Assembly: GCA_965217775.1 (NCBI GenBank)
Contig: CBDCJH010000002.1
Span: 1,088,001-1,152,000, forward strand
Direction: 5' to 3'
Length of the DNA stretch: 64,000 bases
Origin: Acidobacteriota bacterium
GTDB lineage: Bacteria > Acidobacteriota > UBA6911 > RPQK01 > JAJDTT01
Position numbers and translations under genes: made by a program. The notes beneath the pieces were generated by a model. That model was not told the origin of the DNA. It saw only the letters and a list, made by a program, of their open reading frames with translations, and did no database searches. Positions within the stretch are counted from its first letter, which is position 1. Each line of letters opens with the position of its first letter. Positions 3-26,068 of the stretch are shown here, in pieces.

Positions 3-1391
3 AGTGGGCTGGACCGCCTGAAGCCGTTGATCCGCATGAGCCGCCACGCCGTCAAGACCATCAACGACAACATCTTCTGGTTCGGTCTGGTCTTCAATCT
101 GGCCGCGGTCATGGCCGCCTTCTGGGGCTACCTGAGCGCCGTGGGCGCCGCCGTGGTCCACCAGGGTTCCTCGTTCCTGGTGCTGATGAATTCCCTCAAG
201 CTGCTGGATCGCCGGCCGTCGGAGCTTCTTCCCCACGGGCTTCGCCACCGGCTGCACCACCTCCACCACCGGTACCACCATCTCCGCCACGACTTCCACC
301 ATCTCCAACACGATGTCCTCCACTGGTTGCACCATCGGAATCCGGCCCATCTTTTCAGGCACTTTCTCCATTGGGCGGGTCATCGCAAGAAATCCCTCCT
401 GCGCTGGGCCGCGGCCGCGGCCGTCCTGGCGTATCTGTTCTCCGGGGTCCGGATGCTGGCGCCGGAGGAGGTGGGAGTGGTCCAGCGCCTGGGCCGGCTC
501 GTCGAGGGGTCGCTGGACCCGGGGCTTCATTACGTGGCTCCGTGGCCCGTGGAGACCCTCCACCGGCTCCGGCCCGCGCAGGTCCGCACCGTGGAGCTGG
601 GTTTCCGGATCTCCGACTCGGCGCCCGGGGCCGCAGGCGGGCCGGCCGCCTACGAGTGGAACAATCAACATCGGCAGGGACGTTACCTGCGCCGGGAAGA
701 CGAGGCGCTCATGCTCACGGGAGATGAGTATCTGGTGGAGGTCAATGCGGTGGTCCACTACTCCATTGCCGACTTCCACCAGTACCTCTTCGCCAGTTCG
801 AACCTGGAATCCACCTTGCAGTTCCTGTGCGAAAGCGCCTTGCGCCAGGTAGCGGCCACGATGGAGTTGGATCGGATTCTGGCCCTGGACCGGCGCACCA
901 TCGAGAGCGCGGCGATGGCGATCGTCCGAGCGGAGGCGGACCGACTGGGCCTGGGGGTCCGGGTCCAGGCGTTCCACCTCCAGGACGTGCATCCGGCGCT
1001 GGAAGTGGTGGGTGCGTTTCGGGACGTGGCCAGCGCCCTGGAACAGAAGAGCCGCATGATCAACGAAGCGCATGCGTACGCCAACCAGCGGGTGCCCATT
1101 GCGGCGGGCGAGTCCCAGGGTCGCCAGATCCAGGCTCAGGCCTATGCGTTTTCGCGGGTCCGGCGTTCCGAGGGCGAATCCCGCCGTTTCGAACTGCGCT
1201 ACGACGCCTACCGGCAGTCCCCGCGAACGACCCGCATTCGTGTCTACCTGGAGGCCATCGAAGCGGGCTTGGCGGGCAAGAAGAAATACATCCTGGACCA
1301 GGGCTCCGGACGCCGGAAGATGCTTCTGTTTCGTAATTCGGTGTTCAATTTCGGAGACTTCGAGAAGGCGGTCGCCGCCCGCGATCAATGA
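3..1391 (+). CDS. 5'-partial heavy-metal P1B-type ATPase C-terminus fused via His-rich linker to an HflK-like SPFH domain
   Basis: Frame is open from nt 3. N-terminal part matches the last P1B-ATPase helices (SRHAVKTINDNI..., AAVVHQGSSFLVLMNSLKLL). Then a His-rich stretch, a TM helix and HflK motifs (EVGVVQRLG, PGLHY, LMLTGDEYLVEV, QDVHP..EVVGAFRDV, RVYLEAIE). Confidence 0.85.
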   Translation, partial: SGLDRLKPLIRMSRHAVKTINDNIFWFGLVFNLAAVMAAFWGYLSAVGAAVVHQGSSFLVLMNSLKLLDRRPSELLPHGLRHRLHHLHHRYHHLRHDFHHLQHDVLHWLHHRNPAHLFRHFLHWAGHRKKSLLRWAAAAAVLAYLFSGVRMLAPEEVGVVQRLGRLVEGSLDPGLHYVAPWPVETLHRLRPAQVRTVELGFRISDSAPGAAGGPAAYEWNNQHRQGRYLRREDEALMLTGDEYLVEVNAVVHYSIADFHQYLFASSNLESTLQFLCESALRQVAATMELDRILALDRRTIESAAMAIVRAEADRLGLGVRVQAFHLQDVHPALEVVGAFRDVASALEQKSRMINEAHAYANQRVPIAAGESQGRQIQAQAYAFSRVRRSEGESRRFELRYDAYRQSPRTTRIRVYLEAIEAGLAGKKKYILDQGSGRRKMLLFRNSVFNFGDFEKAVAARDQ

Positions 1392-1455
1392 CCCGGAGGC
1401 ACCGCCCGCGTTGGCGGCACCCTGCGGCGGACGCCGGTAGTTGGAGAACAAGTCG

Positions 1456-2355
1456 ATGACCCGAACTCGGAAAATAATCCGGAACCGGTTGTTCTGGATC
1501 CTGATCCTCTTGATCCTCTCCTATCGGAGCCTGTTCCTGGTGAACGAACAGGAGATGGTCCTGGTCACCCAGTTCGGCCGGCCGGTCGCCCAATACAAGG
1601 ATGCGGGGCCCCGTCTCAAATGGTTCTTCCAGGGGCTCACACGCATCGACAAACGTCTGCACCTGTACAATCCGCGGCCCTCCGAATATCTGACCCGGGA
1701 CAAGAAGAATCTCCTGGTGGAGACCTACGTCATCTGGCAGGTGGAGGAGCCGCTCCAATATCTGAGGACCGTCGGGGATCGCTCCGGCGCCGAGATGCGC
1801 CTGCACGACATCGTGTGGTCGTCGGTCTCGGCCGATCTGGGCCGGACCGAGCTTTCCGAATTGGTGGCTACGGACCCGGACCAGGTCCGGCTGGAGCCCT
1901 TGATGGAGAAGCTCACACGCGAGTGCGATGAGATCTCCCGCCAACGTTACGGAGTTCGAATCGCCTCGGTGGACGTGAAGCGGATCAATCTGCCCACCCA
2001 GAACCGCGAGAGCGTCTATGCCCGGATGCGGGCCGAGCGGGACCGCATCGCCAAGAAATATCGGGCCGAAGGGGAGGAGGAGGCCCGCAAGATCCGGGCC
2101 GAGGCGGACCGCCAAGCCGAGGAGCTGCTGTCGGCGGCCTACAAACAGACGGAGATCATCCGGGGCGAGGCGGACGCCCAAGCCACCCGGATCTACGGAA
2201 GGGCCTATTCTCGGGACCCCGAGTTCTACCAGATGGTACGGACGCTGGAAGCGTACCAGCGGATCCTGGACGACAAGACCACCGCGGTCCTTTCGGCGGA
2301 CTCTGAGTTGCTCAAGCTGCTGACCGAGGGGAGGAACGGAAGGTTGGCCCGGTGA
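1456..2355 (+). CDS. hflC: HflC-like SPFH protease modulator
   Basis: N-terminal TM; VTQFGRPV, EYLTRDKKNLLV, VKRINLP, VYARMRAER, DPEFYQMVRTLEAY motifs. GGAG RBS before ATG 1456. Confidence 0.88.
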   Translation: MTRTRKIIRNRLFWILILLILSYRSLFLVNEQEMVLVTQFGRPVAQYKDAGPRLKWFFQGLTRIDKRLHLYNPRPSEYLTRDKKNLLVETYVIWQVEEPLQYLRTVGDRSGAEMRLHDIVWSSVSADLGRTELSELVATDPDQVRLEPLMEKLTRECDEISRQRYGVRIASVDVKRINLPTQNRESVYARMRAERDRIAKKYRAEGEEEARKIRAEADRQAEELLSAAYKQTEIIRGEADAQATRIYGRAYSRDPEFYQMVRTLEAYQRILDDKTTAVLSADSELLKLLTEGRNGRLAR

Positions 2356-3275
2356 GAATCTGGTTGAGAGAAAACATTCTACTGGTGCTGGCCGTGGTCA
2401 TTGCCTTGTTCCTGGCTTCGGGGATCTACTACGTTCCCACCGATCGGCAGGCGGTGAAGTTGCGGCTGGGCCGGCTGCTTCCGGAGCGGATCCAACCGGG
2501 TCTCCAGTATGCCGCGCCCTATCCTCTGGAGGAGGTGGTCCTCTTGAAGACCAGCGAAGCCCAGCGGCTCACCGTCGGGGGAACCGATCTGGACCGCGCA
2601 CTGGGAGTGCGGGTCCTGACCGAGGACGACTCCCTTTTGAGCGGCGACCAGAACCTGGTCCGGGTCCGGGCTTCCATTCAGTACTACATCCAGGATCCGG
2701 GCCGGTATCTGTATCGGTCACAGGCCCTTCCCCGAGTCCTGGAAGTCCTTCTCTACCGCTCCCTCTCTCGAGCCGTGGCGGTCCGGGGCGTCGACGACGT
2801 GCTCACCACGGGCCGCATCGAGATTCAGAATCGGGTCCGGGAAGATCTGCAGCACGAGGCGGACCGCTTGGCTTTGGGTGTGGCCGTGACCTCCCTGGCC
2901 CTGGAACAGGTCCGTCCTCCAGAACAGGTCCGGGACGCCTTCCTGGAGGTGGCCAACGCCAGGGAGGACCGGAACCGGATCGTGCAGGAGGCCAGGGGCT
3001 ACTCCAGCGAGTTGCTGCCGCGAACCCGGGGCCAAGCCCAGGAAAACCTCCAAAAAGCTCGAATCTATGGCCGCGAGGTGGTTGATCGGGCTCAAGGGAA
3101 GTCGCAGCATTTCCTGAGTCTGTGGGGAGAGTACCGGCGCCATCCCACTGTCACCACGGCCCGGCTCTTCCTGGAGGCCATGGAGGAGATCCTTCCGCGC
3201 ACCCGCAAGGTCATTCTGGACGACGCCGGGAGCAAACAGGGGCTGGACCTGGATATATTCGCGCTGGAGGAGTGA
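2352..3275 (+). CDS. hflK: HflK-like SPFH protease modulator
   Basis: TM helix; LLSGDQNLV, VLTTGRIEI, VRPPEQVRDAF, RLFLEAMEEIL motifs. GTGA overlap with hflC. Confidence 0.85.
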   Translation: MRIWLRENILLVLAVVIALFLASGIYYVPTDRQAVKLRLGRLLPERIQPGLQYAAPYPLEEVVLLKTSEAQRLTVGGTDLDRALGVRVLTEDDSLLSGDQNLVRVRASIQYYIQDPGRYLYRSQALPRVLEVLLYRSLSRAVAVRGVDDVLTTGRIEIQNRVREDLQHEADRLALGVAVTSLALEQVRPPEQVRDAFLEVANAREDRNRIVQEARGYSSELLPRTRGQAQENLQKARIYGREVVDRAQGKSQHFLSLWGEYRRHPTVTTARLFLEAMEEILPRTRKVILDDAGSKQGLDLDIFALEE

Positions 3276-3311
3276 GGGAAGCCGGGGAGGGGGACCTCCG
3301 GGGAGACGGAG

Positions 3312-3785
3312 ATGGAACCGAGAAAATGGGTCTCCCTGCTGGCGATCCTGGGCTGCTTCCTCTATTTCGCCTCCCGCGATGCGCCCATCAGGGAAACCGT
3401 AAGGGAAGAGAGACCCGAAGATGTCCTGATCGCCATGGTCCAGGCCATGGAGCGCGGTGACGTCCAGGCGCTCAAGGAGTGCTTCGGAGGAGACCTGAGG
3501 CGGCGCCTGGAGGACCTGTTGGCGCGGGATTCGTCACCCCGGCAGTCCGAGTGGCTCAGGAGACGGGGAAGCGCCGTCAAGGGTCTGGCCATTCTGGGCC
3601 AGGAGGAACTGGGGCCGGATCAGGTCCGGGTGCTGACCGAGACGGTCTACAACGACCGCAACACCCGGCAGTCCTTCCTGTTGGAGCGGGAGAGCGGATC
3701 CTGGCGGGTGACCCAGAGCGATTTCGAAATGGTCAGCGACTGGGAAAACGATTTTGGGAAGTCGATTCGCGAGGTGGAGCGTTAG
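3312..3785 (+). CDS. membrane-anchored hypothetical protein (NTF2-like fold possible)
   Basis: N-terminal hydrophobic helix, GGAG RBS, C-terminal FLLERESGSWRV typical of NTF2-like lipoprotein domains. Co-oriented end of the operon. Confidence 0.65.
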   Translation: MEPRKWVSLLAILGCFLYFASRDAPIRETVREERPEDVLIAMVQAMERGDVQALKECFGGDLRRRLEDLLARDSSPRQSEWLRRRGSAVKGLAILGQEELGPDQVRVLTETVYNDRNTRQSFLLERESGSWRVTQSDFEMVSDWENDFGKSIREVER

Positions 3786-4022
3786 TGATTCTGGAGAGTC
3801 AGCAGTGGGAGCATCGCGCGCCGCCGTGGGCACCTTGACGACTGATTCTGGCCCGTTTGTGGCCATTGGTTGGCGCGAACTGGTTGACGGTTGCGACGGC
3901 GTGAACGACTCGAATCTCGATGCCTTTCCGGCGAGCGACCTTGCCGAAGTATGCAAACCTTCCGGACCGAAAGCATCGTAACTCTGGCTCATGCTTGTGT
4001 TTGCGACTGACACCCAGACCAG

Positions 4023-5204
4023 ATGAATCCCGAGACCAGCCCGTTCAGACCGGGGCAACCCGTTCCCATTGAGTTCTTCGTCGGTCGTGTCGACGAAATC
4101 AGTCGTCTGCACGGTATGGTGAAAGCCAGCACACAAGGCAGGTTCAAAATAGGATTCATCAGTGGCGAACGCGGCATTGGGAAGAGTTCCCTGGCGTCTT
4201 TCGTGCGCCACCTTCCCGAGCAAGGGAGCGCAGTCGCAGGGTGCCATGTGTCTCTTGGCGGCGTCCGGGGATTGCAGGAGATGCTAAGGAGGACCTTCAA
4301 TCGCCTCTTGAAGGAGAGCAGGGACAAGCCCTGGCACGGACAAATCCGGGAGTTTTTCGGAAACCATGTTCGCAAAGTGGGAATGTTCGGCATCAGCCTG
4401 GAATTGGATCTCAAGGACAGAGACCTGTCGACGGTTGCCCATGACTTCGTTCCAACCATCAGGCGGCTCATGGACAGTCTCAAGGGCCACAAGAGCGCCC
4501 TTTTTCTGATACTGGACGACATCAATGGACTCGCTGGTTCCGAAGCCTTCGCCAATTGGCTCAAGAGCATGGTGGACGAGATTGCCACTTCGGGACGTAC
4601 GGTGCCCCTCTGTATTCTCGTCGTCGGCCTCGAGGAAAGACGACAGGAACTGATAGAGCATCAGCGATCTCTCGCCCGCGTTTTCGAGTTGATCGACCTC
4701 GCGCCCTGGTCGACGGGTGAAGTCAAGCAGTTTTACGACACATCTTTCGACTCCGTGAACGCAAAGATCACTGACTCCGATATGGAACGACTTGTCCGGT
4801 TCACCGGCGGACTTCCTGTACTGGCTCATGAAATCGGTGACGCGGTATGGCGCACGGCGCGAAACTTGGACATCAGTGCAAGAGAAGTTACGGCCGGTAT
4901 TCGGACCGCCGCCGACGTGATCGGCCGAAAACTGCTGGAACCACGGATATTCGCCGCCATCCATAGTGAGCGTTACCGTTCGATTCTTCGAAAATTGTCG
5001 GCCGAGCCTCGGATGCGCTTTCGTAGATCGGAACTCGTGGATCGTCTGACGGACGACGAAAAAAGAGTCATGGACAATTTCCTGAGGCGTATGAAACAAC
5101 TCGGAGCGTTGGATGCCGATCCCGGAATCAGAGGCGGGTACCGATTTCCGAACCTCCTCCACGCGTTGTATTTCTGGATGGAGGCACAGCGAACCAGCGC
5201 ATGA
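4023..5204 (+). CDS. AAA/STAND-like P-loop ATPase (AAA_16/archaeal ATPase type) with C-terminal winged-helix-like region
   Basis: SPFRPG...FVGR motif, Walker A GERGIGKSS, Walker B LFLILDD, TGGLP motif. Confidence 0.85.
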   Translation: MNPETSPFRPGQPVPIEFFVGRVDEISRLHGMVKASTQGRFKIGFISGERGIGKSSLASFVRHLPEQGSAVAGCHVSLGGVRGLQEMLRRTFNRLLKESRDKPWHGQIREFFGNHVRKVGMFGISLELDLKDRDLSTVAHDFVPTIRRLMDSLKGHKSALFLILDDINGLAGSEAFANWLKSMVDEIATSGRTVPLCILVVGLEERRQELIEHQRSLARVFELIDLAPWSTGEVKQFYDTSFDSVNAKITDSDMERLVRFTGGLPVLAHEIGDAVWRTARNLDISAREVTAGIRTAADVIGRKLLEPRIFAAIHSERYRSILRKLSAEPRMRFRRSELVDRLTDDEKRVMDNFLRRMKQLGALDADPGIRGGYRFPNLLHALYFWMEAQRTSA

Positions 5205-5280
5205 ATCCGAGAGCAACGTTAACGGGACCACGTTCCGACGGCTGCAACTGCCAATCTGAGGGATTGATTGGTGACGAAAT

Positions 5281-5424
5281 ATGAAGGATCCAATCCTCAA
5301 GGAAATTCGAAAGACAAGGGACGCCCCCGCCACCAAGTTTCATTCTGACCTGCACACGATCTGCGAGGACCTTCGCAAGAAAGAGAAGATCTGCGGTCAT
5401 CCGGTCGTCTCCCTTCCGCGGTAA
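5281..5424 (+). CDS. 47-aa small protein resembling antitoxin-like partners of PIN toxins (possibly a remnant)
   Basis: Translated by hand: MKDPILKEIRKTRDAPATKFHSDLHTICEDLRKKEKICGHPVVSLPR. Resembles the DPIVEEIR..R....A.F..DL..I..DL...VVSL small-protein pattern. Confidence 0.5.
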   Translation: MKDPILKEIRKTRDAPATKFHSDLHTICEDLRKKEKICGHPVVSLPR

Positions 5425-5724
5425 ACGCATCCTCAAGAAGTCGTCCGTGTGAAATGGCGGAATCAGCCACTTCATGTCTAGCCCGCATTTCTCACCAGGT
5501 CGCTACGCGTATGATGAAAAAGAATTTGTTTTTGAGCATTTACGCGGATTATGCCAAGGTTTCTCCGGGACAGACTGCGCGCTGGGCGCTCGCTCGCTGG
5601 TCTTTTCGCCCTCAGCGCGCACATGCTCCCTCAAACGTAGTCACCACTACGCTCTCGGTCGCGAGCACGCGCTGAGGGCGAAAATCCTGCGCGATCGTCA
5701 CGCCCCCTTCTGAGAAACAACCCT

Positions 5725-7068
5725 TTATGTCGCCTGCGAAACTAGCTTGTAGCCGAGGAGACGGGCCTGGTTTCGCACCCGGCGTTCGAAACGTTGCCGG
5801 TCCTGGTGCTCGGTCTCGGTGATCTTGTCCTCCTTATAGTCCACGCGATCGGTGATGAGGCGATAGATGATCCGGGCGAGTTTATGCGCGGTGGCGACGA
5901 TCGCCGCCGGCGTGCCCACTCGGGCGCGCAGCCGGCGGAAGTATTGCCCGAGAGGCGATTGGCTGCGAAACAGGGACTGGGTGGCCCAGCGCAGAGCCTG
6001 GGCGGCCCGGTTCGCGCCCGGTCCGGTGCTGGAACTGATCACCTTGCCGCCGCTGATCTTGTTCTTGGGACACAGGCCCAGCCAGGAGGCGAAGTGCGCC
6101 GAATTGGGAAAGCGGGACAGATCCGGTCCCACTTCCGTGAACAGGACCAGGGCGGTCTGCTCCCCGATGCCGGGGATGCACATCAGGTCCGTGCCCATCA
6201 GTTGCTTCAGTTGCACCCGCAACGGCACCGCCGCAGCCGAGGCGTCCGCACCCTCTGAGGCCCTCGCTTCAAGCGGTAGCGTCGAGCGTTCGAACCCCCG
6301 GATCAGGACGGCGATTTCCTGATCACATTCCCCCAAGAGCTGCTGGAAGTGGGCATAGGTCTCCCGAGCTTGGCGTAGCGTGAACAGCAGTTCGTCGCGC
6401 CAGTTCCCTTCCAACGCTGCGATCAACAGTTCCCGTTTTCGGGTCCGAATCCGCGGGTGGGCCAAGTCGGCCAACCGGGCCGGATCCCGCTCGCCAGCCA
6501 GGATGGCGTCGATGATCCGCAGCCCCGAGAGTCCCGTGATGTCGGTGATCGCATGGTGCAGATGGACATTCATCTGGTCCATCGCCTTTTGCATGTGCAG
6601 CGTCGCCTTCGCGGCGGCCTTGACCAAGGTGTCGCGGTGCCGTAGCAGGGTGCGCACCCGACAGATCTCGTCGGCCGGTCGGAACGAGCCCCGCAACAAG
6701 CCCACCGAGTGCAGGTACCGCAGCCACTCGCAGTCGGCCACGTCGGACTTGCGTCCGGGGACCACACTCACATGACGGGCGTTGACCAGCACCACATCGA
6801 ACCCGTAGTGCTCCAGGATCTGGTACACCGGGATCCAGTAGACTCCCGTCGACTCCATGGCCACGCTTTTTACGTGGCACCCCTGCAGCCACCGCGCCAG
6901 GGCGTGCAGTTGGGAAGTAAAGCTGCGAAACGATCGGATCGGCTGCGGATCGCGGTCGGGGCGGATCGCGACGTACAGTTCCCGAGCGCCGATGTCGATG
7001 CCGGCGGCCTCCGGATGCACGACGTTGGGTTGGGCGCTCCGAGTGCCGGTGCGTTTGCGTCTTGCCAT
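5725..7068 (-). CDS. IS110-family transposase/recombinase (447 aa)
   Basis: DEDD motifs AAGIDIG, VAMESTGVYW, RKSDVADC; C-terminal IPGIG, FASWLGLCP, ISGG. GGAGG RBS before ATG 7068. Confidence 0.95.
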   Translation of the reverse strand: MARRKRTGTRSAQPNVVHPEAAGIDIGARELYVAIRPDRDPQPIRSFRSFTSQLHALARWLQGCHVKSVAMESTGVYWIPVYQILEHYGFDVVLVNARHVSVVPGRKSDVADCEWLRYLHSVGLLRGSFRPADEICRVRTLLRHRDTLVKAAAKATLHMQKAMDQMNVHLHHAITDITGLSGLRIIDAILAGERDPARLADLAHPRIRTRKRELLIAALEGNWRDELLFTLRQARETYAHFQQLLGECDQEIAVLIRGFERSTLPLEARASEGADASAAAVPLRVQLKQLMGTDLMCIPGIGEQTALVLFTEVGPDLSRFPNSAHFASWLGLCPKNKISGGKVISSSTGPGANRAAQALRWATQSLFRSQSPLGQYFRRLRARVGTPAAIVATAHKLARIIYRLITDRVDYKEDKITETEHQDRQRFERRVRNQARLLGYKLVSQAT

Positions 7069-7104
7069 GATGATTGCCTCCACGTTGATTTGGAAAATGT
7101 GCCA

Positions 7105-7295
7105 ATATGGAGCGGGGCGGCCAGGGCGTGAGTTCCGGTAATCTTCTGTTTGGGATGATCCTCTCTGGCTTGCTGCCAGGGAGGATCTCACCATGGATTC
7201 CGCCACCCGCCCCGGGACCAAGCTGATGACCGGGTTCGCCTCGAAAGGCTCAACGCCAGTGGGGGACCGGACTACTTCACGCCCCACTCCGAAAC
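7105..7295 (-). ncRNA. candidate IS110 bridge/seek RNA
   Basis: Lies within ~300 bp of non-coding sequence upstream of the transposase. TAGAAT -10-like box at 7303-7308 on the minus strand, 11-bp closing stem (7109-7119/7280-7290), 13-bp hairpin at 7157-7187, and 8-9 nt matches to target and element ends. Confidence 0.6.
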
Positions 7296-24131: not shown

Positions 24132-25142
24132 ATGGCTGATCAAATTTTCGACATGCCCGAGTTTCGTCCTCCGAGGATCAATTGGAGGTACGTCCGACTA
24201 GGATTCCTGGTCATTTGTGTGGTGGTTCTGGCCTTTGGGACCGTCTATCAGGTGCAGCCGGAAGAGGTCGGAGTGGTCCTGTTTTTCGGGCAGCACGTTC
24301 GCACCGCCCAGCCGGGACTTCGCTTCAAGCTCCCCTTCATGGAAGACGTGCTGAAGGTCCCGGTGCAGCGCCAGCTCAAGCAGGAATTCGGGTTTCGGAC
24401 CACCCAGCCGGAGATCCGGACCCGCTATGCCTCCAAGCGGTTCCTGGACGAGTCGTTGATGCTCACCGGAGATCTGAACGTGGCGGTGGTGGAGTGGATC
24501 GTCCAGTTCCGGATCACCGATCCATTCCTCTTTCTCTTCAGGGTCCGGAACGTTCAGGAGACGTTTCGGGACATGAACGAAGCGGTGATGCGCGAGGTGG
24601 TGGGGGATCGGACCGTCACCGAGGTCTTGACCGTGGGCCGCCAGGAAATCGAGGACATCGCGGAGCAGAAGTTGCAGGAACTCTGCAGGCAGTATGAGAC
24701 CGGAATCACCGTGGACCAGGTCGTCTTGCAGAACGTGAATCCGCCCGATCCTGTCAAGCCGTCGTGGGACGAAGTGAACCAGGCCCAGCAACAGATGGAC
24801 CGCCTCATCAACGAGGCTCGCGCCGAGTACAACAAGGTGATCCCCCGGGCCAAGGGTGAAGCGGAACAGGCCGTCCTGCAGGCTCAGGGTTACGCCCTCG
24901 AGCGCGTCAACGAAGCCAAGGGGGATGCCTCCCGCTTCAAGTCTCTGCACGACGCCTACCGCCGGGCGCCCGAGGTCACCCGGCGGCGGATGTACCTGGA
25001 GACCATGCAGAAGATCCTGCCTCGTTCGGGTCGCAAACTGTTTCTGGACCAGGATGCGGACGGCGTCGTTCCGCTGCTGCCCATGGAGTCGCTGGAGAAG
25101 ATGATATCGGGTCGTTCACAAGCGGAGGGATCGGGCCCATGA
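24132..25142 (+). CDS. hflK: FtsH protease modulator HflK
   Basis: KQEFGFRT, ESLMLTGDLNVAVVEW, QNVNPPDPVK, VIPRAKGEA, RRMYLETM. Confidence 0.93.
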   Translation: MADQIFDMPEFRPPRINWRYVRLGFLVICVVVLAFGTVYQVQPEEVGVVLFFGQHVRTAQPGLRFKLPFMEDVLKVPVQRQLKQEFGFRTTQPEIRTRYASKRFLDESLMLTGDLNVAVVEWIVQFRITDPFLFLFRVRNVQETFRDMNEAVMREVVGDRTVTEVLTVGRQEIEDIAEQKLQELCRQYETGITVDQVVLQNVNPPDPVKPSWDEVNQAQQQMDRLINEARAEYNKVIPRAKGEAEQAVLQAQGYALERVNEAKGDASRFKSLHDAYRRAPEVTRRRMYLETMQKILPRSGRKLFLDQDADGVVPLLPMESLEKMISGRSQAEGSGP

Positions 25143-26068
25143 AGCGCCGACATCTGTATCTACTCCTGGGTGTGGCCATCCTGGCCCTGGTGGTGGACGG
25201 CACCTACGTCACGAACGAAGCCGAGCAGGTCATCATCACCCAGTTGGGTAGACCGGTCGGAGACCCGGTCACCGATCCGGGTCTTCACCTGAAACTTCCC
25301 TTCATCCAGACGGCCAACTATTTCGACAAGCGATTCCTGGAGTGGGACGGCGACGCGGACCAGATGCCGACCAAGGACAAGCGATTCATCTGGGTGGACA
25401 CCTACGCCAGGTGGCGCATCAGCGATCCGCTCCGATTCCTGGAGAGGATGCGGGACGAACCCAGGGCCCAGTCCCGGCTGGACGACATTCTGGACGGCGA
25501 GACCCGCAACGCCATCGCTCGCCACGAACTGGTGGAGGTGGTCCGGACCAGCAACCGGCAGGCCCAGGAAACCCAGGAGTCAGCCGAGGAGGAGACCTCG
25601 GTCCTCGAGATCATCGAGACCGGCCGCCAGGCAATTACCCGGGAGATTCTGGAGACGGCCACTCCCAAGGTGGCCGACTTCGGGATTGAGCTCATCGATC
25701 TTCAGCTCAAGCGGATCAATTATGTGGAAGAGGTCCAGAAGGACGTCTTCGCCCGCATGATCGCCGAGCGCAACCGAATCGCGGAGCGCTATCGCTCGGA
25801 GGGTCAGGGCCAGGCCGCCCGGATCCGGGGCGAGCGGGAGAGAGAACTGCAGCGGATTCAGTCGGAAGCGTACAAGACCGCTCAGGAGACCCGAGGCAGG
25901 GCGGACGGAGAAGCCACTCAGATCTACGCCGAAGCGTACAACCGGGATGCCTCCTTTTACGCCTTCATGAAGAGCATGGAGACGTACGAGCGGGGCGTCG
26001 ACGCCAAGACGATCCTGATCCTCACCACCAAGGGCGAGTTGCTCAGGCATCTCCAACGGGCTCAGTAA
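25139..26068 (+). CDS. hflC: FtsH protease modulator HflC
   Basis: PTKDKRFIWVDTYARWRI, KRINYVEEV, RMIAER, FYAFMKSMETY. ATGA overlap with hflK. Confidence 0.93.
   Translation: MKRRHLYLLLGVAILALVVDGTYVTNEAEQVIITQLGRPVGDPVTDPGLHLKLPFIQTANYFDKRFLEWDGDADQMPTKDKRFIWVDTYARWRISDPLRFLERMRDEPRAQSRLDDILDGETRNAIARHELVEVVRTSNRQAQETQESAEEETSVLEIIETGRQAITREILETATPKVADFGIELIDLQLKRINYVEEVQKDVFARMIAERNRIAERYRSEGQGQAARIRGERERELQRIQSEAYKTAQETRGRADGEATQIYAEAYNRDASFYAFMKSMETYERGVDAKTILILTTKGELLRHLQRAQ

Follow-up and report, generated by a model that had tools for sequence, protein, structure and literature searches.

Can a metal pump and the membrane scaffold that is presumed to act on it be made as one polypeptide, and if so, how would the two work together? 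The question is raised by the beginning of a 64,000-nucleotide stretch of DNA from an Acidobacteriota bacterium (the window; G000:C2:1088001-1152000). HflK binds and modulates FtsH and forms a 24-subunit assembly with HflC, and the theme of an oligomeric SPFH scaffold that acts on a membrane transporter, and whose operon also encodes a small protein anchored in the membrane, is found as well in stomatin-type systems, in which the small partner is of the NfeD type. What an SPFH ring or cage does to the membrane proteins it encloses is debated. As described in PMC13220708, HflK/C cages enclose FtsH hexamers, and the architecture of HflK/HflC-FtsH is a matter of debate between a closed cage and an open "nautilus" form. 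An earlier note on the window claimed that a single frame joins the end of a P1B-ATPase to HflK, followed by hflC, a second hflK and a small anchored protein.

The fused gene

Within the window the fused gene is open at its 5′ end and occupies positions 3 to 1391 of the plus strand (residues 567-1028). When the upstream DNA was read, the whole ORF was found at L003:6305-9391 (G000:C2:1086305-1089391), encoding 1028 aa with no interruption. Most of the ATPase does lie outside the window, as the earlier note had it, and the upstream part supplies an unbroken frame with both DKTGT and CPC. Pfam places E1-E2_ATPase at residues 129-301, Hydrolase at 317-542 and Band_7 at 720-925. Judged against the curated NCBIfam cut-offs, both halves score above threshold, the pump half with TIGR01525 (554 bits, cut-off 346.25, residues 82-633) and the second half with hflK TIGR01933 (175.3 bits, cut-off 159.4), which together with the single 1028-aa ORF bears out the claim of one joined frame. 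An AlphaFold2 model (mean pLDDT 84.9) runs from eight pump helices through a helical linker to a ninth transmembrane helix (TM9), the SPFH domain, a coiled coil and C-terminal strands. Judging from the DNA, we conclude that the fusion is genuine and that its ATPase is complete, with the catalytic motifs intact.

Translation probably starts at the ATG at L003:6320, five codons into the 1028-aa ORF, because the resulting 1023 aa is the length of P0002, a database protein 98% identical to the fusion, and because residue M6 (not to be confused with helix M6 below) is a near-invariant column in the family. A promoter and terminator scan of L003:5600-12000 gave 1 promoter-like site where 0.8 would be expected and 3 terminator-like sites where 4.1 would be, and is uninformative except as a pointer that suggests the same ATG.

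The pump half and its metal

By its sequence the pump half is a P1B-type heavy-metal ATPase, and ATP-driven transport is predicted. The ORF contains ACPCAMV, FDKTGTLT, ITGES and GDGVND; DKTGT, TGE and GDGxND are invariant among the near-full-length family members (107/107), as is the CPC of helix M4 (residues 279-281; 107/107). An HMA domain is absent from the pump half. Eight transmembrane helices are predicted in the model (18-40, 52-73, 79-93, 96-128, 238-265, 268-300, 568-606 and 612-634), the last two of which, M5 and M6 (residues 568-634), lie at positions 6 to 206 of the plus strand according to the family alignment and the model. M5 has the conserved residues N589, F593 and N598, and M6 carries the signature A-x2-H-Q-x-S-S-x2-V-x2-N, with the Gln present in 106/107 members.

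The pump probably carries a divalent metal of the Zn/Co/Ni type. Clues to this are the sequence VHQGSS in M6, which aligns with VHEGST..N of the solved pump 7QBZ, His-rich cytoplasmic segments whose position differs between lineages, and a gene adjoining in two lineages that is UreH/NicO-like by language-model similarity only. CopA-type Cu(I) pumps (P1B-1) are characterized by YN in M5 and M-x2-SS in M6. We rejected this identity, as FN and HQGSS stand opposite the YN and MALSS of 3RFU (LpCopA); the family consensus of the fused pumps has no Met at the CopA M6 ligand position. The P1B-4 (CoaT/CzcP type) signature is SPC in M4 and HEGST in M6, and is present also in 7QBZ and in pump matches of this analysis. 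Like the P1B-4 CoaT-type structures 7QBZ and 7QC0, which match residues 33-636 and thus reach near its N-terminus, the fusion lacks an HMA domain, and its M6 aligns with that of 7QBZ, VHQGSSFLVLMN in the fusion against VHEGSTLVVVAN in 7QBZ. Unlike P1B-4 pumps, however, it has CPC rather than SPC in M4 and Gln rather than Glu in M6 (H-Q-x-S-S), so that P1B-4 identity was likewise rejected and the likeness is one of M6 resemblance only. The SPC/HEGST rows of the pump tree are placed well away from the fused clade.

Linker, ninth helix and HflK half

The pump is followed by a cytoplasmic linker of 53 aa (residues 637-689; positions 213 to 371, plus strand), which is predicted to be helical and in the genus of the window holds 18 His. 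Across the family the linker varies in sequence and in length (3-53 aa), and we rejected the idea of a family-wide metal-binding domain because 79/107 members carry 0-2 His in it; the His-rich form is confined to the genus of the window and near relatives. TM9, the HflK membrane anchor (residues 695-712; positions 387 to 440, plus strand), was placed from the model and aligns with the E. coli HflK transmembrane segment at about residues 83-100. Next come the SPFH/Band_7 domain (residues 720-925; positions 462 to 1079, plus strand), and the coiled-coil helices (residues 899-971 and 973-989) with the C-terminal strands (positions 999 to 1271, plus strand, from the model). The best solved relatives of the SPFH half are the E. 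coli HflK structures 7VHP, 7WI3, 9CZ1 and 9CZ2 (E 5.7e-27), with stomatin and QmcA as weaker solved matches. Like E. coli HflK, the fused half thus has one transmembrane helix, an SPFH domain, a long coiled coil and C-terminal strands; unlike E. coli HflK, it has a whole P1B pump in place of the disordered cytoplasmic N-terminus (about 80 residues in the alignment).

The alignment also revealed an insert in the fused HflK, (E/G)PAAYEWNxQHRxGR(F/Y), with the core W-x3-H (residues 779-794; positions 639 to 686, plus strand). Y783, E784 and H789 are found in 107/107 members and W785 in 106/107, which makes the insert about as conserved as the catalytic motifs. In the alignments, the YEWNxQH insert is absent from hflK2 and from canonical hflK.

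Companion genes and the canonical hflKC

Downstream of the fusion, the ORFs and NCBIfam agree with the gene order originally proposed. Gene 2 (positions 1441 to 2355, plus strand; 304 aa, TTG start) is an hflC-like paralogue scoring 189.5 bits with hflC TIGR01932 (cut-off 134.4). Gene 3 (hflK2; positions 2352 to 3275, plus strand; 307 aa), a second and unfused hflK-like paralogue, has a GTG start that overlaps the hflC-like stop by 4 nt (GTGA), and scores 198.6 bits with TIGR01933 (cut-off 159.4). Gene 4 (positions 3312 to 3785, plus strand; 157 aa) is predicted to encode an N-terminal membrane anchor and a periplasmic NTF2-like domain (model pLDDT 77), the model giving Foldseek matches to NTF2-like structures with E from 4e-5; Pfam and NCBIfam gave nothing above cut-off for it. 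A complex prediction of hflK2 and hflC' with gene 4 as partner, run without controls, scored 0.01 against a mark of 0.32 and speaks neither for binding nor against it.

A separate, normal hflKC does exist outside the module at 24132-26068 of the plus strand (hflK 24132-25142, 276.7 bits; hflC 25139-26068, 262.8 bits), with scores well above those of the module paralogues, which are 31-35% identical to these canonical proteins of their own genome. In the SPFH tree each of the three module genes has its own clade, apart from canonical HflK/HflC, and the branching inside these clades matches; the canonical HflK clade has support 99, fused HflK and HflK2 group as sisters (support 88), and both fall outside the clade of the genome's canonical HflK. 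The module genes are thus a dedicated set of paralogues, with clades of their own, co-inherited and distinct from canonical hflKC. Like E. coli HflK/HflC, the fused half and genes 2 and 3 pass the equivalog models, and HflK-type and HflC-type genes are adjacent. Unlike E. coli HflK/HflC, the module has three paralogues instead of two, its fused paralogue carries the conserved W-x3-H insert, and it has no linked ftsH.

There is no ftsH in or near the module, and bona fide FtsH is encoded by a single copy about 4.6 Mb away. In 4/5 module genomes tested, a canonical hflKC that scores far higher is kept apart from the module; in one genome (G221) there is no HflK above cut-off outside the module, so the module SPFH proteins may still serve FtsH there. 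Around the module, the neighbouring sulfatases and a DUF3604-like protein are not conserved across lineages, Pfam and NCBIfam gave nothing above cut-off for the His-rich upstream membrane protein of f5/f69, and a shared operator was not evident when the regions upstream of 11 loci were read by eye.

Distribution of the fusion

The fusion is a conserved family and not a one-off. Fusion proteins fall into at least 177 clusters at 90% identity (long proteins, E<=1e-3), and the 120 listed among these all have both Hydrolase and Band_7 (120/120). In the phylum, 15/301 sampled genomes contain it, including that of the window, so that the single fused frame recurs in 14 further sampled genomes, and it recurs in hundreds of metagenome proteins; named members outside the phylum belong to Planctomycetota and Elusimicrobiota. 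Fused proteins account for 47 of the best 150 pump-half representatives, and the pump tree groups the fused pumps in a single clade (support 97), where they are 46 of 50 rows. Short pump-only representatives within this clade (P0123, P0131, P0160 and P0217) end 10-93 residues past helix M6 and may be cut gene calls. The neighbourhood recurs too, as the order fusion-hflC'-hflK2 was found in 10/10 further loci, and an HflC-type gene is adjacent in 11/11 loci of the phylum. The three-SPFH set is not a universal companion of the fusion, since L064, a fused locus from a Planctomycetales MAG and the sole fused locus examined from outside the phylum, lacks hflC', hflK2 and gene 4 in the 3.5 kb that follow it downstream. 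A scan of species representatives by full-length alignment with generic P-type ATPase motifs gave 1 fused locus (L064) among the 80 listed, and is unsuited as a distribution survey.

Unfused cassettes and the hmtA cluster

The same parts also occur as separate genes. In P. aeruginosa the hmtA cluster PA2434-PA2439 is described as a P1B pump beside three HflK/HflC-family genes (PMC4542158, PMC11761036), of which hmtA (PA2435) and PA2437-2439 are induced together under zinc depletion (PMC4542158, Table 2; PMC11761036); HmtA is an importer according to work cited in PMC4542158. The earlier remark that no functional description is known stands for the fusion, for which we found none in the literature searched; for an unfused counterpart, however, a description has been published.

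We find that the module has the make-up of an hmtA-type cluster, with an HMA-less CPC pump with His in M6 beside HflK-like, HflC-like and second HflK-like genes, a likeness that rests on the published layout and on related genomes. The pump and three-SPFH parts are present in L068 and in 4/4 top loci from the order of genomes that includes a Salinicola locus, where the cassette reads HflK-like, HflC-like, HflK-like, pump. In contrast to the fusion, such cassettes encode the pump on its own, at their opposite end; the pump of the Salinicola-order loci has CPC and, in M6, H-N-L-S-T, with HN where the fusion reads HQ, and this type lies outside the fused clade. Unfused pump loci of the CPC/HN type have no SPFH neighbour in 8/9 cases. 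The HflC-like genes of the cassettes match the module hflC with E 8e-33 to 6e-38; canonical hflC was matched in one locus only, at 3.6e-18. In the SPFH tree that includes the unfused cassettes (59 rows) the branches are long, and the deep nodes between the two HflK types are open. In an alignment of 16 sequences, the W-x3-H core is common to the first HflK-like gene of the unfused cassettes from 1 Verrucomicrobiales locus and 4 loci of the Salinicola order, and the insert thus marks the pump-linked HflK, fused and unfused alike.

Discussion

With modest confidence, we lean towards the explanation that the fused pump-HflK, the HflC-like protein and HflK2 form a periplasmic ring or cage with the pump as its built-in client. 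The fusion would be one inner-membrane polypeptide, in which an eight-helix pump is followed by a cytoplasmic linker, TM9 and a periplasmic HflK-type SPFH protein, a domain order that would keep the native topology of both halves. Together with the HflC-like protein and HflK2 it would most likely build a ring or cage of the HflK/HflC type on the periplasmic face, and we infer that its client would be the pump, in place of FtsH or in addition to it. HflK2 could take HflK positions without a pump, and thus set the number of pumps per assembly, and the W-x3-H loop, which lies in the membrane-proximal SPFH domain, could contact the pump at its periplasmic mouth or gate it. This explanation draws on gene structure, motifs, conservation, co-inheritance and kinship with the unfused pump and three-SPFH cassettes.

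Alternatively, the SPFH half and its partners may bind FtsH, by which the pump would be held near the protease and its abundance cut rapidly as metal status shifts. We regard this as unlikely. In its favour, the three SPFH genes pass HflK/HflC equivalog models, G221 has no other HflK above cut-off, PMC13220708 describes FtsH hexamers inside the cages and counts the P-type ATPase MgtA among the known substrates of FtsH, and a P. aeruginosa proteomics paper mentions that HflK/HflC partner the zinc protease HflB (PMC11761036). However, a higher-scoring canonical hflKC is present beside the module in most of the genomes tested, the module paralogues are distant from the canonical proteins, and the only bona fide ftsH is far away. 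It is also conceivable, but improbable in our judgment, that the fusion serves co-expression and co-insertion, with the SPFH proteins then acting on the membrane at large (lipid order or microdomains in metal stress) and on the pump in no specific way. A covalent link is dispensable, since unfused cassettes with the same parts exist, and the linker is variable in length and sequence; yet the fused state has been kept over a deep clade and at least three phyla, and an insert conserved like the catalytic motifs marks exactly the pump-linked HflK. That the fusion is an artefact or non-functional, whether because the assembly or the frame is wrong, because the pump is decaying or because the SPFH half is normally translated from an internal start, seems to us very improbable. 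An internal start is compatible with the sequence and there are short pump-only rows within the fused clade, but these may be cut gene calls, the same frame recurs across genomes and metagenomes, and all catalytic motifs are invariant.

The ring or cage with the pump as client could be taken one step further, to a closed periplasmic compartment built by the three SPFH proteins, with several pumps tethered to its wall. Such a metal-handling nanocompartment would be insulated from the bulk periplasm, and the pumps would move metal into or out of it; the W-x3-H loop would serve as a relay or gate, and the anchored NTF2-like protein would be an accessory on the inside. This is a speculation to which we give little weight.

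Unlike stomatin-type systems, the module has its presumed client covalently attached in the fusion, and unlike stomatin operons its small partner, gene 4, is NTF2-like and not NfeD-type. A fusion gene with two scaffold genes and an anchored protein is thus a naturally occurring scaffold that comes joined to its likely client, and it ties the presumed client pump to a scaffold subunit in a field where the effect on enclosed proteins is under discussion. This tie has been kept together with two further dedicated scaffold paralogues. The covalent linkage, which sets the stoichiometry, the conserved loop and the pump activity as a read-out of the scaffold would make it a practical system. By the Rosetta-stone argument, the fusion hints at cooperation between the pump and the first HflK-like protein in the unfused cassettes as well, and the argument extends to clusters with the layout of the P. 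aeruginosa hmtA cluster, which is induced by zinc starvation.

Structure and start of the fused gene

Positions 3-3785 of the window, which spans G000:C2:1088001-1152000, are filled by four ORFs on the plus strand, namely the 3' part of the fused P1B-ATPase-HflK gene (3-1391, open at its 5' end), an hflC-like gene 2 (hflC', 1441-2355), an hflK-like gene 3 (hflK2, 2352-3275) and gene 4 (3312-3785), all placed by ORF calling and genes 2 and 3 also by NCBIfam. An earlier note had proposed that one frame joins a P1B-ATPase to an HflK domain, and that the ATPase upstream should be unbroken and carry its motifs. Both points hold, as in the 8 kb of upstream DNA that we examined (L003) the first frame extends without a stop into a single ORF of 1028 aa (L003:6305-9391) with the motifs ACPCAMV (CPC), FDKTGTLT, ITGES and GDGVND. 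Pfam finds E1-E2_ATPase at residues 129-301, Hydrolase at 317-542 and Band_7 at 720-925, and the NCBIfam scores are 554 bits for TIGR01525 (cut-off 346) and, over residues 716-1006, 175.3 bits for hflK TIGR01933 (cut-off 159.4). The hflC and second hflK with a GTGA overlap, described in the same note, are likewise recovered: NCBIfam assigns gene 2 to hflC (189.5 bits, cut-off 134.4) and gene 3 to hflK (198.6 bits), and the GTG start at 2352 overlaps the stop ending at 2355, so that the two genes share 4 nt.

The ORF as called begins at a GTG, where a promoter-like match ends; the match is weak, since the scan found 1 site against 0.8 expected. From the sequence, an ATG five codons further 3' seems the likelier start, because the promoter-like match ends at the GTG with this ATG only five codons on, a database protein 98% identical to the fusion is 1023 aa long, and the column of the corresponding methionine, residue 6, is near-invariant in the family. 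The choice of start codon leaves the fusion itself unaffected.

The module is bordered by other genes. Divergent from it and just upstream of the window lies a gene for a 330-aa protein (L003:4735-5727, minus strand; G000:C2:1084735-1085727), the N-terminus of which is dCTP-deaminase-like (Pfam DCD 32.1 bits; NCBIfam dCTP_deam 43.6 bits, below cut-off) and the C-terminal half of which, about 150 aa, has a hydrophobic stretch at its end, a build that is unusual for this enzyme family. Directly downstream of the module are a STAND/AAA_16-type NTPase (4023-5204, plus strand; AAA_16 51.5 bits) and then an IS110-family transposase (5725-7287, minus strand; DEDD_Tnp_IS110 and Transposase_20). As GC falls to 0.54-0.57 over 4001-5500, this stretch may be a mobile or foreign insertion at the operon border.

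Predicted anatomy of the fusion protein

The AlphaFold2 model, built from a 52-sequence alignment (mean pLDDT 84.9), contains eight pump helices (18-40, 52-73, 79-93, 96-128, 238-265, 268-300, 568-606 and 612-634) and visible A, P and N domains. These are followed by a linker that is helical at 644-676 and over which confidence drops from ~74 to 45. A ninth TM helix (TM9, 695-712) then leads into an SPFH domain (715-897), after which come two further helices (899-971 and 973-989) and the C-terminal strands. With eight helices, the pump is predicted to have both its N- and C-terminus in the cytoplasm, and TM9 would bring the SPFH part to the periplasm, the side on which it lies in the accepted topology of HflK. 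In alignment TM9 matches E. coli HflK from residue ~83, and therefore the pump stands in for the ~80-residue cytoplasmic N-terminal region of HflK. The order of parts in the single polypeptide preserves the topology of both halves; the catalytic core of the pump is intact, and the HflK half is complete in its build.

For the family we aligned 107 near-full-length sequences, the window's protein and 106 matches of 940-1100 aa. The fused pumps have no HMA domain, with a median of 8 residues before the first TM helix, and the linker is 3-53 aa long (median 34). The 18 His in the linker of the window's protein are a trait of this genus; at least 5 His occur in 23 of the 107 sequences and 0-2 in 79. 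Other lineages have His-rich segments in a different place, namely the N-terminus in the fused pumps of family f69 and in the unfused pump of L068, a locus from a Verrucomicrobiales MAG. A 54-nt match to the His-rich linker region (query 255-311; 77% identity, E 6.8e-4) at another place in the window's genome, locus L002 (G000:C2:2590009-2593062), may be another His-rich coding segment.

Pump signature and probable metal

CPC, DKTGT, TGE and GDGxND are invariant in the 107-sequence alignment. N589, F593 and N598 are conserved in helix M5, and so are H619 (107/107), Q620 (106), S622 (101) and S623 (95) in helix M6. The FN and HQGSS of the fusion align opposite the YN and MALSS of solved LpCopA, and the best match for M6 alone is the CoaT-type pump 7QBZ (VHQGSSFLVLMN against VHEGSTLVVVAN). 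Because CPC is invariant while M6 aligns best to 7QBZ, the signature reads as a hybrid, CPC with a P1B-4-like M6 that has Gln in place of Glu. The class names (CopA-type, P1B-4) follow what we take to be the textbook P1B subgroup signatures, and signature classes are discernible among the matches themselves. The fused members of the best 150 representatives are CPC/HQ (35), CPC/HE (10), CPC/HL (1) and CSC/HQ (1), and the unfused ones include CPC/HN (41), CPC/HQ (18) and CPC/HE (11). Of the unfused pumps in the phylum sample, the five closest differ in signature and have no SPFH gene within 1.5 kb, a statement independent of the one locus among the five (L022) that comes from an unpublished genome (G024). 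The pump probably transports a divalent metal of the Zn/Co/Ni kind.

Just upstream of the fusion in families f5 and f69 lies a gene for a membrane protein of 220-251 aa (L031:8726-9481 and L027:2588-3250, both minus strand). The protein is polytopic, with a His-rich loop in f69, belongs to no Pfam or NCBIfam family, and has an ESM Atlas score of 0.97 against clusters that in part bear the labels UreH-like, DsbD_2 or NicO; as a lead, it is possibly a second metal permease.

Distribution and ancestry of the fusion

Whether the fusion occurs in other genomes could be answered in the affirmative from database proteins, from the phylum and from further phyla. A database search with words from the HflK half, in which the candidate length of 565-1799 aa was set by the whole protein, gave 177 proteins at E<=1e-3 among 7999 scored candidates. 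Among the matches listed, which come mainly from Acidobacteriota MAGs, 120/120 carry Hydrolase and Band_7 and 107/120 also E1-E2_ATPase, the 13 that lack it being 573-773 aa long. They carry automatic source names: "HflK", "cadmium-translocating P-type ATPase", "Cu+-exporting ATPase" and, in one case, "P-type ATPase/HflK protein".

In the window's phylum, where scoring covered the top two candidates of each genome, 14 of the 301 sampled genomes (the window's own included) have a match across both halves in one frame, and with G221, which is fused too, the count is 15/301; the unpublished G024, G152 and G049 were counted as non-fused, and the tally is independent of them. By family, the fused genomes are 8/8 in f1 (the window's own), 1/3 in f5, 5/5 in genus g133 of f69 and 1/2 in f44. 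The pump half alone has 83,882 matches at E<=1e-3 in an exhaustive search of 1.84 billion representatives, and 47 of the best 150 of these bear an HflK-like C-terminal extension; named fused members belong to Gemmataceae (Planctomycetota) and Elusimicrobiota. A fused locus from a Planctomycetales MAG (L064) was found among species-representative genomes.

In a FastTree of pump domains (146 rows, fragments P0122, P0143, P0207, P0229 and P0243 excluded) the fused pumps form a single group of 50 rows with support 97, comprising 46 fused and 4 short pump-only rows; the latter stop 10-93 residues past M6 and may be cut gene calls. One fused row, P0185, falls outside this group. The tree requires at least 6 changes between fused and unfused states, against about 40 with shuffled labels. 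P0143 (1301 aa) is a longer fused variant in which the pump match begins at residue 322 and the HflK-like part starts ~290 residues past M6, and it therefore has additional N-terminal and linker segments.

A dedicated set of SPFH paralogues

A neighbourhood survey found the order fusion, hflC-like, hflK-like kept in 10/10 further loci of the phylum, covering five lineages and reaching down to ~42% pump identity. Outside the phylum, the 3.5 kb downstream of the fused L064 gene (1180 aa) contain neither hflC' nor hflK2 nor gene 4. Orthologues of gene 4 are present in 10/11 loci; the gene is directly downstream of the module in f1, f5 and f69, with a 4-nt overlap with hflK2 in L027 and L031, and no gene 4 ORF of at least 90 aa was found in L030. 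In G221 (L033; G221:C5:145000-157000) gene 4 lies upstream of the fusion, with a 1017-aa DUF3604/Reg_prop-like gene between them.

The small anchored protein that the earlier note placed at the end of the operon agrees with the model of gene 4, a TM anchor plus an alpha+beta cone (pLDDT 77). Its Foldseek matches are NTF2-like structures (E from 4e-5, target-normalised TM-score ~0.5-0.6), and NCBIfam gave a sub-threshold match only. Its alignment has no invariant Cys, His or Met, so gene 4 does not resemble a metal chaperone.

The separate, normal hflKC pair reported at 24132-26068 is present (hflK 276.7 bits, hflC 262.8 bits), and the module proteins are paralogous to it, as had been proposed, at 31-35% identity within the window's genome. 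A tree of 44 HflK/HflC-type proteins resolves five clades, canonical HflK (support 99), canonical HflC (99), module HflC (96), HflK2 (97) and fused HflK (99), with HflK2 and fused HflK as sisters (88) that both stand separate from canonical HflK (92). The module's three clades branch alike internally, which indicates inheritance as one unit. The window's genome has 7 Band_7 loci and one FtsH above cut-off, at C2:5.72 Mb. Canonical hflK is retained elsewhere in 4/5 module genomes tested (269-288 bits); in G221, which is 100% complete, the only TIGR01933 matches above cut-off are the two HflK inside the module.

A shared insert and the unfused cassettes

The membrane-proximal SPFH domain of fused HflK contains an insert that HflK2 and canonical HflK lack in the alignment. 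The core of the insert, (E/G)PAAYEWNxQHRxGR(F/Y), equals the catalytic motifs in conservation: Y783, E784 and H789 occur in 107/107 sequences, W785, Q788, R790 and G792 in 106 and N786 in 105, and in the 52-sequence set, which is more diverse, W is found in 50/52 and H in 49/52. The model has pLDDT <50 at 779-787, as expected for a loop.

Unfused cassettes consist of three SPFH genes and a separate pump gene. Among 80 named loci, L068 encodes in turn an HflK-like, an HflC-like and a second HflK-like protein and then the pump (CPC/HNAGS); around the other 8 loci of the set with a CPC/HN pump there is no SPFH gene within 3.5 kb. When 201 genomes sampled from the order that holds a Salinicola locus were searched with the L068 pump, the four best matches all had the four genes arranged as in L068, with a pump that reads CPC / H-N-L-S-T. 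Their HflC-like gene matches module hflC at E 8e-33 to 6e-38, canonical hflC was matched in one of the four loci only (3.6e-18), and in one locus all three SPFH genes are Band_7 by Pfam. The first HflK-like ORF in these loci (L155:1785-3923, plus strand, and its equivalents in L154, L156 and L157) is 654-713 aa as called from putative starts, and its ~350-390 N-terminal residues before Band_7 have no Pfam match.

Adding the cassettes to the tree gave no clear pairing of their HflKs with the module HflKs. The best evidence for a correspondence is the W-x3-H of the insert, which has the form YEWNxQH in fused Acidobacteriota, REWQTGH in fused Planctomycetales, LLWTKPH in the first HflK-like gene of L068 and RLWDA[ST]H in that of 4/4 Salinicola-order loci, and is absent from the remaining HflK-like genes and canonical HflK in the same alignment. 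As W-x3-H appears to be a shared derived mark, we take the fused HflK to be the counterpart of the first SPFH gene in the unfused cassettes.

A cluster of similar layout, the hmtA cluster of P. aeruginosa, is on record. In Table 2 of PMC4542158 the pump gene PA2435 appears as "P-type ATPase importer (HmtA)", and the entries for PA2437, PA2438 and PA2439 read "HflC family", "HflC" and "HflK family"; the term importer is taken from another paper cited there. In a znuA mutant these four genes showed 5.6- to 14.4-fold induction, and a putative weak Zur site (E 0.11) is given for the PA2434-PA2439 cluster (PMC4542158); zinc depletion raises the PA2435, PA2438 and PA2439 proteins (PMC11761036). The proposed identity of our cassettes with this cluster of strain PAO1 draws on its published layout and on relatives of the cassette type.

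Possible role of the module

Neither the parts nor the unfused arrangement is new, and databases contain the fusion under automatic names. The expectation that it might be annotated there and lack a functional description was borne out, as no description of a P1B-ATPase-HflK fusion was found in a full-text literature search, with most subscription journals outside its coverage. As far as we found, there is no earlier description of the covalent fusion, of the paralogue set dedicated to it, of the W-x3-H mark or of the CPC/HQ pump clade.

That the fused form is non-functional or is translated separately seems to us highly improbable, the frame being uninterrupted and the catalytic motifs invariant across the family. 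Also improbable, if less so, is that pump and SPFH proteins are only loosely coupled and the pump itself is not specifically affected, given the conserved insert of the pump-linked HflK. The main alternative is that the assembly still recruits FtsH, so that the pump can be turned over quickly. The known FtsH substrates listed in PMC13220708 include a different P-type ATPase, MgtA, and G221 has no further HflK above the TIGR01933 cut-off; we nevertheless consider this alternative rather unlikely.

The reading we favor, at slightly better than even chances, is that of an SPFH assembly with the pump as its client, tuned by HflK2 and with a loop by the pump mouth. HflK/HflC occurs in closed forms, solved with 24 copies, as well as in open ones (PMC13220708), and the three SPFH proteins of the module would assemble like them into an alternating ring or cage. 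The W-x3-H loop would then lie at the periplasmic membrane surface beside the pump mouth, and with the unfused HflK2 the cell may be able to adjust how many pumps each assembly holds.
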